This document shows positions 2,026-4,145 of a DNA stretch of 11,057 nucleotides, in pieces. Each line of letters starts with the position of its first letter. The first letter of the stretch is position 1. The position numbers and the translations under genes are program-made. Where the stretch lies: IMG/VR virus record IMGVR_UViG_2923360383_000006; one strand, 5' to 3'. The stretch is from a virus. Lineage: Duplodnaviria > Heunggongvirae > Uroviricota > Caudoviricetes. Under the pieces are notes generated by a model. The model did no database searches, had not been told where the DNA came from, and saw only the letters and a list, made by a program, of their open reading frames with translations.

Positions 2026-3939
2026 TCATGCTCCACTCGATTTCAGTAATCCGCGATAATCGAGGGCCGCGACACCTGCATCTATGCGCACCTTCCAGGC
2101 GACGCCATCAACAGTAAATCCCTCCTGCTCCTCAAGATATGGCGTATCAATACCATCAAGATAAGCGACCTCTATCGTGTCCATACCCTTCGCCGCTGCC
2201 ACATACCACTCCTTGTTATTGGCTTTATCAAGACGTGGCTCAACGATTACCTCCGCCATATCTTTCACCACGTTAATGATGCCGGGGTTCTGATTGATAG
2301 TGCCCACGCCATCAACCGGAAAGAGTGATGACGATGACAGAATGGCGCGATGTGCGGCAGACTCCAGCGCGGCGGGGACCAGGACAAATGCGGGGGTAAT
2401 ATTCAGCGAATCGCCGTTAGCGTCTTCCTGGAGGCGCATCAGCTTACGGGCTTCGTTAAGCCCCTCCATGTCCATATCCTTCGCAATAAGATTTTTATGA
2501 TCGGCATGGAATAACGCTTTACCATCCGTAAACTTGCCGTTGCTGGTTAACAGGAGATAAACCAGATTGCCAACTGTTCTGGCAGCTGCGCGTCCCATCG
2601 CCATGGGGATTGTAGTTAACTGGGTCAGATCATCGTTGATAATGGCCTGACGGGTAACGGAAAAAATATTCCCGTACGTGGCCAGCGCAATAGGTACACC
2701 TTTATCGCTGGTGGTGATGTATTTATATTCCGCGCCTTCCGGTACTTTATCCAGCTTTGAAAAACCATTCAGACCAACGCGCTTTGCTTCATGAAAGTTT
2801 GAAAGCGAACCGGTACGCGTCCATTTCTGGAACGTTTCGCCGCTGTCCTGCCAGCCTTTCAGTACTGATTTTTCAGCGCCACCAGCCAGAATATGAGAAA
2901 AATCGCTGCTGCTGTGTGTGAAAGCTGCATTAACGACCTGCGAGCGATTTAAAAAACCGCCAACACTGATACCACGATCAGTTAGTGATGCCTGGGCCAT
3001 TTCAAAAAGGCTCATCATCGCGTAAGGGTTGCCTCGTTCAGGGCGTTCATACCCAAGACGGGAATAAAGCCCCTGACGAATTGCATCACCTGTTATGTTT
3101 CCGTTTCCGGCATAGATATGAGGCGGGGTATTTTTATTGGATGGCGTGGACTCGCGCCCCAGCTCGTTCAACAGCTTTTCACGGGCCATTTCCGGTGTAC
3201 ATGATGCATCTTCCAGACACGCCATTTTGATCCCATCGTAACGACTGCCGAACAGGCTAAACACTTCACTTATTCCATTGATGCGCTTCTGTTCATTACC
3301 AGCAATATTTGCCGCTCCCTGTGGCGGTGTAATCATTCCTTTAATGGTTTCCGGCATATGTAAAAAATCTCCTGTGCGTTTCGATTCAATTCGCGCCATT
3401 GCTCTGACGGATGGCAACAATTCATCAGCAAAACCGTGCTTAAGGCATTCTTTCCCATCCATCCAGGTTTCATCCTCCAGCATGGCGGTAATTTCCTGTG
3501 CTGATTTGCCCGTTTTTCTGGCATAAGCAGGGATTAACACGGTTTCCACCTTATCCAGCAAATCAGCATAATCACGCATATCGCCAGCATTTCCGCCAGA
3601 GATCCCCCACGGTTTATGGATCATCATCATGGCGTTCTCCGGCATCACTACACGATCGCCAGCCATTGCGACCACCGAAGCCATTGAAGCCGCAACACCA
3701 TCGATATAAACCGTAATGTCTGCCGGATGATTCCGTAGCAGGTTATAGATGGCGATGCCTTCAAACACATCACCACCTGGTGAATGGATCCTCAGATTGA
3801 TATGTGAAACATCGCCAAGGGCTTTCAGGTCTTCCGCGAACTGCTTTGCAGTAACACCGAAGCCGCCAATCTCCTCATAGATAGATATATCCGCCGCTCC
3901 ACGAACATCCGCCGCCTTAATGGTGTACCAGCGATTCAT
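2026..3939 (-). CDS. Prohead protease (ClpP/S14-like) fused to HK97-type major capsid protein
   Basis: 637-aa ORF. N-terminal ~200 aa carries ClpP-like motifs (HSPGGDVFEGIAIYNLL, GVAASMASVVAMAG, MMIHKPWG); the C-terminal ~400 aa has the length and character of an HK97-family capsid protein. Start ATG overlaps the orf68 stop (TAATG) with GGTGGGGG upstream. Confidence 0.85.
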   Translation of the reverse strand: MNRWYTIKAADVRGAADISIYEEIGGFGVTAKQFAEDLKALGDVSHINLRIHSPGGDVFEGIAIYNLLRNHPADITVYIDGVAASMASVVAMAGDRVVMPENAMMMIHKPWGISGGNAGDMRDYADLLDKVETVLIPAYARKTGKSAQEITAMLEDETWMDGKECLKHGFADELLPSVRAMARIESKRTGDFLHMPETIKGMITPPQGAANIAGNEQKRINGISEVFSLFGSRYDGIKMACLEDASCTPEMAREKLLNELGRESTPSNKNTPPHIYAGNGNITGDAIRQGLYSRLGYERPERGNPYAMMSLFEMAQASLTDRGISVGGFLNRSQVVNAAFTHSSSDFSHILAGGAEKSVLKGWQDSGETFQKWTRTGSLSNFHEAKRVGLNGFSKLDKVPEGAEYKYITTSDKGVPIALATYGNIFSVTRQAIINDDLTQLTTIPMAMGRAAARTVGNLVYLLLTSNGKFTDGKALFHADHKNLIAKDMDMEGLNEARKLMRLQEDANGDSLNITPAFVLVPAALESAAHRAILSSSSLFPVDGVGTINQNPGIINVVKDMAEVIVEPRLDKANNKEWYVAAAKGMDTIEVAYLDGIDTPYLEEQEGFTVDGVAWKVRIDAGVAALDYRGLLKSSGA

Positions 3940-4145
3940 TATTCCCCCACCGATGCAAAACCATTCTGATTAAGCCAGGTGTTTACGGCATGTCTGACAA
4001 TCTGCGCCACACCTGGTAATGGTTTGTCAGGATGATGATTTATATGGTCGATCCTGTACTGCTTAAGGCGCATAACGGTCTGCGCATCCAGATGAACGGA
4101 ACCACCCCTGATATCGCCCGTGTTCAGGTCATTAATACAACTCAC
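3939..4145 (-). CDS. Hypothetical protein (68 aa), first gene of the capsid operon
   Basis: GTG start at 4145 with AAGAGGAAG 7 nt upstream; stop overlaps the capsid start. No family recognised. Confidence 0.5.
   Translation of the reverse strand: MSCINDLNTGDIRGGSVHLDAQTVMRLKQYRIDHINHHPDKPLPGVAQIVRHAVNTWLNQNGFASVGE

Follow-up and report, generated by a model that had tools for sequence, protein, structure and literature searches.

Phage-inducible chromosomal islands (PICIs) have been assigned five core components in the SatelliteFinder paper, namely an integrase (int), a regulator, a primase-replicase (pri-rep), a capsid morphogenesis gene and a small terminase gene (terS, encoding TerS); portal and connector genes are the markers that divide capsid-forming PICIs from PICIs in that scheme. 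Here we compare the described islands with a satellite that encodes a protease and a capsid protein fused in one polypeptide and that accounts for the window, by which we mean the whole 11,057-nucleotide stretch of DNA that was analyzed (IMG/VR record IMGVR_UViG_2923360383_000006). In Escherichia coli, EcCICFT073, the model Gram-negative PICI of strain CFT073 (Fillol-Salom et al. 2018, 2019), has a late module of the lambda type, with a 351-aa gpE-like capsid gene (c1499), a decoration gene and RppA, which hijacks the TerS of the helper phage; other published E. coli PICIs carry a lambda-type late set as well. EcCICFT073 has two cos sites with a conserved cosN and a divergent cosB, and only cos1, the site beside the packaging gene, is needed. 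In capsid-forming PICIs (EcCIEDL933; Alqurainy et al.), the capsid and protease genes are separate and stand in a fixed order with those for portal, connectors, HNH, large terminase (TerL) and TerS; only tails are taken from the helper. A further relevant case is SaPIbov5, whose Ccm protein is a capsid homologue that makes small capsids with the cos helper phi12; the capsid homologue of PmCI172 makes small capsids as well.

The window is almost all of an 11,382-bp Gram-negative PICI of the EcCICFT073 kind. Both islands are ~11.4 kb long, hold their main genes on one strand, carry two cos sites with a helper-like cosN and a diverged cosB, and have neither portal nor TerL. They also share one gene order: int, helix-turn-helix (HTH) regulator, YlcI/YnfO, Icd-like gene, DUF4222 gene, D5 primase, a small gene, the single-strand DNA-binding protein (SSB) gene, a 68-aa gene that overlaps the capsid gene, a packaging gene and a 93-aa gene. 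Identity to the EcCICFT073 counterparts runs from 100% (Icd-like) through 87.5% (81-aa protein), 74% (93-aa protein) and 70% (SSB) down to 49% (primase). The islands differ in attachment site (ycfD-phoQ for EcCICFT073, tRNA(CAU) here), in their integrases and in the regulator, which here is an HTH_17 protein. They differ as well in the late module, which in this island is of the mEp460/Gifsy-2 type, with the fusion gene and a full TerS homologue but no decoration gene. The explanation that we favor, and hold with considerable confidence, is that a PICI of the EcCICFT073 kind carries an old, diverged pair of helper-type genes, terS and the protease-capsid fusion, together with two copies of cosN.

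A sequence-only reading of this DNA had recognized a satellite with a TerS, a 637-aa fusion of a ClpP-like protease to an HK97-type capsid protein, and a 68-aa gene coupled to it. All of these have been borne out, the fusion by Pfam, PHROG, NCBIfam, AlphaFold and BFVD, the coupling by a 1-nt overlap and the TerS by its DUF1441 and PHROG 141 matches. The same reading had contrasted the element with classical PICIs, taken to have no capsid gene, and had proposed a new intermediate class between these and capsid-forming PICIs. That proposal is not supported, because classical PICIs do carry capsid genes: EcCICFT073 has c1499 without portal or TerL, capsid morphogenesis belongs to the SatelliteFinder core, and 21 of 29 reference Gram-negative PICIs have a capsid gene (Tommasini et al.). 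PICIs of E. coli that have a capsid gene and lack portal and TerL are already documented, and the fusion genotype has already been noted in a survey. Specifically, the tRNA-Met PICIs of Tommasini, Mageeney and Williams (bioRxiv 2022), which have a distinctive integrase, no alpA and a CLP_protease gene, fit our island, the match in genotype being inferred from their description; in that work such islands figure only as targets of embedded satellites, and the fusion gene was not analyzed. A literature search found no relevant study of a fused protease-capsid gene in lambdoid phages. What is new here is that the satellite fusion genes form one old clade under strong purifying selection with fixed changes concentrated in the shell part, have a 68-aa partner found only in satellites, occur with two helper-type cosN copies and a diverged cosB-like stretch, and that some relatives of the island are embedded in the helper’s own fusion gene.

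An island bounded by tRNA repeats

The chromosomes of E. coli HS13-1 and of two other strains match the window with 100% identity. In HS13-1, the island is integrated between mug and nfeF at the 3′ end of a tRNA(CAU) gene, which is labeled tRNA-Ile in RefSeq and called tRNA-Met by ARAGORN because its anticodon is CAT. Its ends are marked by a perfect 49-nt direct repeat that equals the 3′ end of this tRNA, with the two copies 11,382 bp apart; attL is the 3′ part of the tRNA gene, 96–144 nt to the left of window position 1, and attR lies 181–229 nt to the right of the window, just past the integrase gene. Beyond these ends, 15 kb on each side consist of E. coli core genes (to the left dnaG, rpoD, mug and the tRNA gene; to the right nfeF, nfeR and aer). 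The minus strand carries all substantial genes of the window, which follow the standard PICI order of zones, from integrase and HTH regulator through the Icd-like gene and the primase and SSB genes to the late zone. The island thus has a tyrosine integrase within direct-repeat att sites that bound a region in the ~8–15-kb range, a primase-replicase module (D5 domains, with the SSB gene downstream), and a capsid-morphogenesis gene and terS at the far end (Table 1). The gene array had been thought to end at about position 1000, and the last gene does end there. The island itself continues, however, since positions 1–999 are non-coding island DNA with no credible open reading frame (ORF) and attL lies beyond them.

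Scans with Pfam, PHROG and NCBIfam profiles found no portal, TerL or connector gene in the window, as the sequence-only reading had it; the 15 kb on each side, where such genes would have made this an ordinary capsid-forming island, hold none either. More broadly, no ORF of the island matches a tail, lysis, portal or head-tail connector gene, and searches by tblastn with the TerL and portal proteins of mEp460 matched only in prophage loci. With no portal, TerL or connectors within the mapped ends or beyond, any particle must use helper parts, and the dependence on helper components that had been proposed is upheld. Capsid-forming PICIs share with this island a related backbone of integrase, regulator and primase and have their own capsid protein and TerS; in contrast, neither the island nor its flanks contain a portal, connector or adaptor, TerL or HNH gene, and the separate protease of those islands is absent. 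Traits of P4-like satellites were not found, as no Psu-Delta-Sid families occur among the ORFs and Rfam gave no match to C4 or isrK, immunity RNAs of the P4/P1 type, up to an E value of 1. The island is also distinct from helper-embedded satellites in that it sits at a chromosomal tRNA gene.

A sibling of this satellite occurs as a record of its own. NZ_CP148328.1 (10,790 bp, whole record) is listed as a circular ‘plasmid’, pZ1323HEC0475-3, in a complete E. coli assembly; its integrase differs from that of the window island, and the two share the primase, the fusion gene, the DUF1441 TerS and the 93-aa gene. This record probably represents an excised island assembled in circular form, and the satellite family is thus probably active. 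Together with relatives embedded in cognate prophages, the free circle gives indirect evidence of induction, replication and transfer that depend on a helper. In addition, the late module (window 1000–4145) is covered to at least 80% by megablast matches in 187 of 5,426 complete E. coli genomes. These observations bear on the idea that the island no longer functions, having arisen by decay of a prophage or by gene loss from a capsid-forming PICI. Although such decay would leave some head genes of phage origin with the remaining head module missing, as is the case here, we find the idea hardly credible given the perfect att repeats, the intact genes and a gene order that is that of an experimentally validated PICI. 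It also fails to fit the free circle, the frequency of the late module, a two-gene cassette that purifying selection has preserved in many genera, and the lack of any trace of a capsid-forming PICI’s unfused capsid and protease, HNH, TerL, portal or connector genes.

The fusion protein, its phage relatives and its partner

Profile searches resolve the fusion protein into two parts. The N-terminal part matches Pfam CLP_protease (aa 31–175, E = 1.6e-35), and the C-terminal part matches Phage_capsid_4 (aa 336–634, E = 1.6e-53, profile positions 7–262 of 262) and also Mu-like_gpT (3.1e-09). Over its full length, the protein matches PHROG 133 (3e-285), and it scores 904.8 bits, against a cut-off of 475, with the NCBIfam model NF045540, named ‘ClpP-like prohead protease/major capsid protein fusion protein’. 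The ClpP residues Ser85 and His108 are present and are invariant in 63 homologues. We modeled the protein with AlphaFold from an alignment of 63 sequences reaching down to 47% identity (mean predicted local distance difference test score, pLDDT, 78.9); this alignment replaced a shallow one of 13 sequences, with which the capsid part had a pLDDT of <50 and was unusable. The predicted order of elements is a ClpP fold, helices at 213–262 and 280–365, a hairpin at 375–409, a 24-residue helix at 443–466, an alpha/beta A-domain and C-terminal strands. From the hairpin onward, this modeled order is that of the HK97 fold, with a pLDDT of ~75–90. In BFVD, a library of viral protein models, the structure matches stand-alone phage major capsid proteins at 12–19% identity with a probability of 1.00; one such match, A0A8S5TI44, has an E value of 7.8e-16 and a template modeling (TM) score of 0.69 on the target. 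Profiles, predicted structure and BFVD matches hence agree on an HK97-like C-terminal domain, which had first been proposed from the sequence alone.

To place the fusion gene among its relatives, we searched phage genomes with tblastn, and full-length homologues with 57% identity were found in mEp460, mEp043, mEp213, VT1-Sakai and several Shiga toxin (Stx) phages. The mEp460 protein is 57.7% identical over its full length and is the sole capsid gene of that phage, in which the order is TerS, TerL, a small adaptor, portal, fusion gene, decoration gene and tail genes. The fusion is not a satellite novelty, because the helper’s capsid gene is built that way; it is the normal capsid gene of the mEp460/Gifsy-2 head type, present in every phage of this type and inherited from the helper lineage. 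The phages mEp460, mEp043, mEp213, Gifsy-2 and cdtI and the Stx phages share with the island the fusion architecture, the DUF1441 TerS and the cos-terS arrangement. However, in mEp460-type phages the fusion gene is surrounded by genes for TerL, adaptor, portal and decoration protein, all four absent from the island, and is not accompanied by a 68-aa partner. Scanning one genome per bacterial species, we obtained 80 loci, and their identity to the window’s fusion protein is bimodal. Nine loci lie at 71–80%, and upstream of most of them are primase, HTH or integrase genes of satellite type; the remaining 71 lie at or below 59%, all in the context of a prophage head module. A lambda-type portal gene stands directly upstream of the fusion gene in 69 of the 71 prophage loci, the remaining two being contig fragments; most also have TerL, and the closer relatives have mEp460-type TerS and decoration genes.

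In a neighbor-joining tree, the satellite copies of the fusion form one clade that is sister to the copies from Enterobacterales prophages. This clade spans Escherichia, Kluyvera, Trabulsiella, Pectobacterium, Yersinia, Rahnella, Buttiauxella, Phytobacter and Moellerella, and its ratio of nonsynonymous to synonymous change (dN/dS) is 0.03–0.11 where it can be estimated, synonymous sites being saturated between genera. We then asked where the two groups differ, counting alignment columns that are fixed in the satellite clade and fixed to another state in the Enterobacterales prophage clade. There are 34 such columns, with one in the protease (aa 1–180), three in aa 181–300 and 30 in aa 301–637, a clustering with a Fisher p of ~1e-5, or ~7e-5 when constrained columns only are counted. 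Furthermore, every satellite copy has an insertion of 7–14 residues at aa 538–546 that no phage copy has, and lacks the Pro/Ala-rich linker found in the phage copies. As judged from these alignments, the protease appears to have stayed interchangeable with the helper’s and the shell part to have gained lineage-specific features, a pattern of divergence that exceeds that of a recently captured spare part.

Almost half of the clade-fixed columns (15 of 34) fall in aa 281–400, the helical stretch before the capsid core and the hairpin. In HK97-type capsids, the pre-core helical and hairpin regions make contacts between subunits. This clustering is compatible with a different role, in which the diverged subunit co-assembles with the helper’s capsid protein or occupies its portal, spoiling or diverting helper head assembly and lowering helper yield to the benefit of island and host, and does not serve the island’s own particles; interference at the level of the capsid is, moreover, common in satellites (Ccm, CpmAB and Sid, as covered in reviews). 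Nonetheless, we consider this role improbable. A poison subunit needs no protease, yet the catalytic residues and the protease domain are conserved with almost no clade-specific change, and in EcCICFT073 the interference maps to Rpp and not to the capsid gene.

The 68-aa gene ends on a stop codon that overlaps the ATG of the fusion gene by one nucleotide. A homologue of this small gene lies directly upstream of the fusion in eight of the nine satellite-type loci (in the ninth, the match is cut at the N-terminus) and in none of the 71 prophage loci, a distribution that marks the 68-aa gene as a satellite-specific partner of the fusion. Its product belongs to no family in Pfam, NCBIfam or PADLOC. 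Both this protein and the 68-aa protein of EcCICFT073 (8463–8669 of locus L005) have a strand-helix-helix arrangement that resembles, by eye only, ribbon-helix-helix DNA-binding proteins. Homology between the two was considered and is not established (BLASTP E = 0.27; hhalign probability 4.5%). Both 68-aa genes overlap the start of a capsid gene with their stop, though the capsid genes differ in type.

Together, the 68-aa gene and the fusion could constitute a minimal capsid kit, in which one polypeptide would act as protease, scaffold and shell, would require only the helper’s portal, and would form satellite-specific and probably small capsids that exclude the helper genome. We regard this version as doubtful. 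If it were true, the island would be a real intermediate of capsid-remodeling and capsid-forming PICIs and would explain why Gram-negative PICIs retain capsid genes. Independently of that version, the old satellite-only lineage, the purifying selection, the concentration of changes in the shell part and the satellite-only partner argue for a specific function of the fusion gene rather than for baggage.

One short segment of the fusion gene departs from this picture of divergence. At aa 256–270, nucleotide identity to genes of E. coli mEp460-like prophages is 98%, versus 64% gene-wide. This patch is probably the product of gene conversion, as far as the sequence can tell; a nucleotide-level element could be the other option. 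The 111-nt stretch around the patch (window 3090–3200) is matched in 1,568 of 5,426 genomes, and in HS13-1, counted as places in the genome, it has a second match elsewhere. The patch coincides with a linker of low confidence in the model (aa 264–279), where a maturation cleavage site might lie.

Relatives of the island are found inside prophages as well. In Kluyvera (locus L009, 3221–14598) and Rahnella (L013, 2651–14222), satellites are integrated within the prophage’s own fusion gene, which they split at about residue 98–112; they are co-oriented with it and lie between the portal gene and the remainder of the gene, and each carries its own intact fusion gene. These are helper-embedded satellites at the CLP_protease site of Tommasini et al., whose satellites at C:CLP_protease:110 occupy the same position in the protease domain. 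Such an arrangement suggests a spare copy, with the satellite supplying capsid protein while the helper’s gene is interrupted, or lost in defective prophages; at tRNA sites, the copy would add subunits to normal heads that are filled with four-unit concatemers. Tommasini et al. propose a back-up role and note that packaging by Gram-negative PICIs is phage-sized, capsid mutants of EcCICFT073 transfer normally, and four island units come to 45.5 kb (4 × 11,382 bp) against 44.5 kb for the mEp460 genome. We still judge a spare copy unlikely. A spare should track the helper’s gene or be captured anew frequently, yet all satellite copies fall into one old clade, at 54–59% identity to helper copies, including those of the helpers in which they are embedded. 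The fixed differences also lie in the shell part and spare the protease, and excision restores the helper’s gene, so that a spare would be needed only briefly.

Other relatives differ from the window island between the fusion gene and terS, where they carry a lambda gpI-like tail assembly gene (PHROG 32; L007 10080–10810, L011 12367–12984 and, in the circular sibling, L088 8473–9173) and sometimes a fragment of a tail protein gene too. The window island has no gpI.

Packaging signals and a possible use for the capsid

The true start of terS is at 1769, in agreement with RefSeq and with the phage homologue, and the product is 64% identical to the TerS of mEp460. It is a full-length homologue of the phage protein, and thus a TerS rather than an Rpp-type hijacker of TerS. 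The latter identity was examined and rejected; a PDB sequence search, in which the structures of RppC and RppC–lambda TerS should be present, gave no match.

The two cos copies are the halves of a 94-nt direct repeat, 89% identical to one another, and each follows a terminator-like hairpin; GC hairpins with a T run, similar to the one upstream of the 68-aa gene, stand directly after the fusion stop (~2003–2018) and after the SSB stop. From copy 1 through to the terS start, the island runs colinear with the terS upstream region of L022, an mEp460-like prophage. In this comparison the repeat block is 89% identical, the next ~100 nt are diverged, and the last 44 nt before the terS ATG are 98% identical. 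Inside the repeat block of copy 1 is ACGGGGCGGGAGCGGCGCGG, which resembles lambda cosN. The pattern of cos sites in this island is that reported for EcCICFT073.

From these elements we can outline how the island might be mobilized. A helper of the mEp460/Gifsy-2 type would induce the island, which would replicate with its own primase and SSB. The satellite TerS would then bind its own diverged cosB-like stretch and recruit the helper’s TerL, with cutting at the conserved cosN. The fusion protein of the satellite would assemble on the helper’s portal and process itself through its Ser-His protease, and the shells would be completed with helper connectors and tails. We tentatively propose that the fusion is kept for satellite-specific shells, most likely small ones that hold one 11.4-kb cos-to-cos unit, as with SaPIbov5 Ccm and PmCI172; this proposal is possible, though we would place it somewhat short of an even chance. 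The likeness lies in a cos-packaged satellite that has a diverged homologue of the helper’s capsid protein (57% identity here) and neither portal nor TerL. There is no sequence relationship to Ccm, however, and the island’s homologue adds a protease and a scaffold-like linker. In addition, small capsids are known for SaPIbov5 and PmCI172 but are not known for any E. coli PICI of this kind, and they were not seen for EcCICFT073 with lambda.

Several points weigh against this interpretation. Deletion of the capsid or decoration gene of EcCICFT073 left both transfer and interference unchanged (Fillol-Salom et al. 2018), and EcCICFT073 DNA packaged with a lambda helper is phage-sized. By analogy, the capsid gene of our island may be dispensable for transfer or size redirection, and these negative results are the main reason for caution about the role of the fusion protein. 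The island is also almost exactly one quarter of the helper genome, a size that suits the packaging of concatemers in normal heads as well as it suits small heads. With regard to its identity as a PICI, the regulator beside int is a 62–65-aa HTH_17 protein without a Pfam AlpA match, and thus belongs to HTH_17 and not to the AlpA family, although Tommasini et al. group HTH_17 functionally with AlpA. The evidence that links the island to a helper prophage of HS13-1 consists of the second copy of the 111-nt stretch. Searches of solved structures in the PDB gave lists filled by ClpP and crotonase matches, with no solved capsid among them; the capsid fold therefore rests on Pfam, NCBIfam, the topology of the model and BFVD. 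Finally, our interpretation as a whole derives from sequence. Most Gram-negative PICIs carry a capsid gene, yet it was dispensable in the laboratory in the one case tested; this island, with a single gene to knock out or swap, offers a convenient system in which to test what PICI capsid genes do.

Feature map and remaining genes

Positions of the genes, fusion parts and packaging signals discussed above are collected in Table 1 along with the other features of the island.

Table 1. Features of the island by position in the window
Feature	Position	Strand	Matches and remarks
93-aa gene closing the late module	1000–1281	-	PHROG 1561; 74% to EcCICFT073
TerS homologue (DUF1441, Gifsy-2/mEp460 type), 161 aa	1284–1769	-	Pfam DUF1441 4.2e-34; PHROG 141 1.1e-55
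cosB-like stretch between cosN and terS start	1770–1922	-	
cos copy 1, cosN-type, 94-nt direct-repeat copy upstream of cosB-like stretch and terS	1923–2016	-	
Protease-capsid fusion gene, 637 aa	2026–3939	-	Pfam, PHROG 133, NF045540, AlphaFold, BFVD
Fusion, capsid core, aa 336–637 (approximate)	2029–2934		
Fusion, helical linker/pre-core, aa 181–335 (approximate)	2935–3399		
High-identity patch in fusion gene, aa 256–270	3130–3174	-	98% nt identity to prophage genes
Fusion, protease, aa 1–180 (approximate)	3400–3939		
68-aa partner gene, GTG start	3939–4145	-	PHROG 4934
Terminator-like hairpin upstream of 68-aa gene, intergenic	4254–4270	-	
cos copy 2, cosN-type, between SSB gene and 68-aa gene; no terS after it	4458–4551	-	
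SSB gene, replication zone	4570–4992	-	70% to EcCICFT073 SSB
81-aa gene	4989–5234	-	87.5% to EcCICFT073 counterpart
D5-type primase-helicase gene (pri-rep)	5522–7339	-	Pfam D5_N, DUF5906, Pox_D5; PHROG 864; 49% to EcCICFT073 Pri
DUF4222 gene	7336–7635	-	Domain/RefSeq match
Icd-like host cell-division inhibitor gene	7955–8158	-	100% over 64 aa to EcCICFT073
HTH_17 regulator/excisionase-like gene, AlpA position	8627–8815	-	Pfam HTH_17 1.3e-12; RefSeq annotation
Tyrosine integrase gene, 475 aa	9630–11057	-	RefSeq and profile matches

Between the integrase and the HTH regulator, in the usual PICI slot for accessory or defense genes, lies a 228-aa gene (window 8957–9643) with a low G+C content (0.36), whose product has no match in Pfam, PHROGs, NCBIfam or PADLOC; the PADLOC models of defense systems also gave no match when run on the orphan genes and the fusion gene. 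In the non-coding part of the island, window 385–708 recurs in 722 E. coli genomes, where it is sometimes annotated as a hypothetical protein, and other islands at the same tRNA site are wholly different across window 1–987. In Pectobacterium colocasium, a related satellite (L011 14162–16591) adjoins mug and rpoD, the same neighborhood as in E. coli, so that use of this attachment site extends across genera.

Identity to EcCICFT073 reaches 100% for the Icd-like protein, versus only 34–49% for its neighboring genes, which points to a recent exchange of this small segment between islands. Adjoining the start of this gene on the opposite strand, window 8159–8231 (+) has a sub-threshold Rfam match to the SymR antisense RNA (34.7 bits versus a gathering score of 61, E = 0.0015), and this stretch may encode an antisense regulator.

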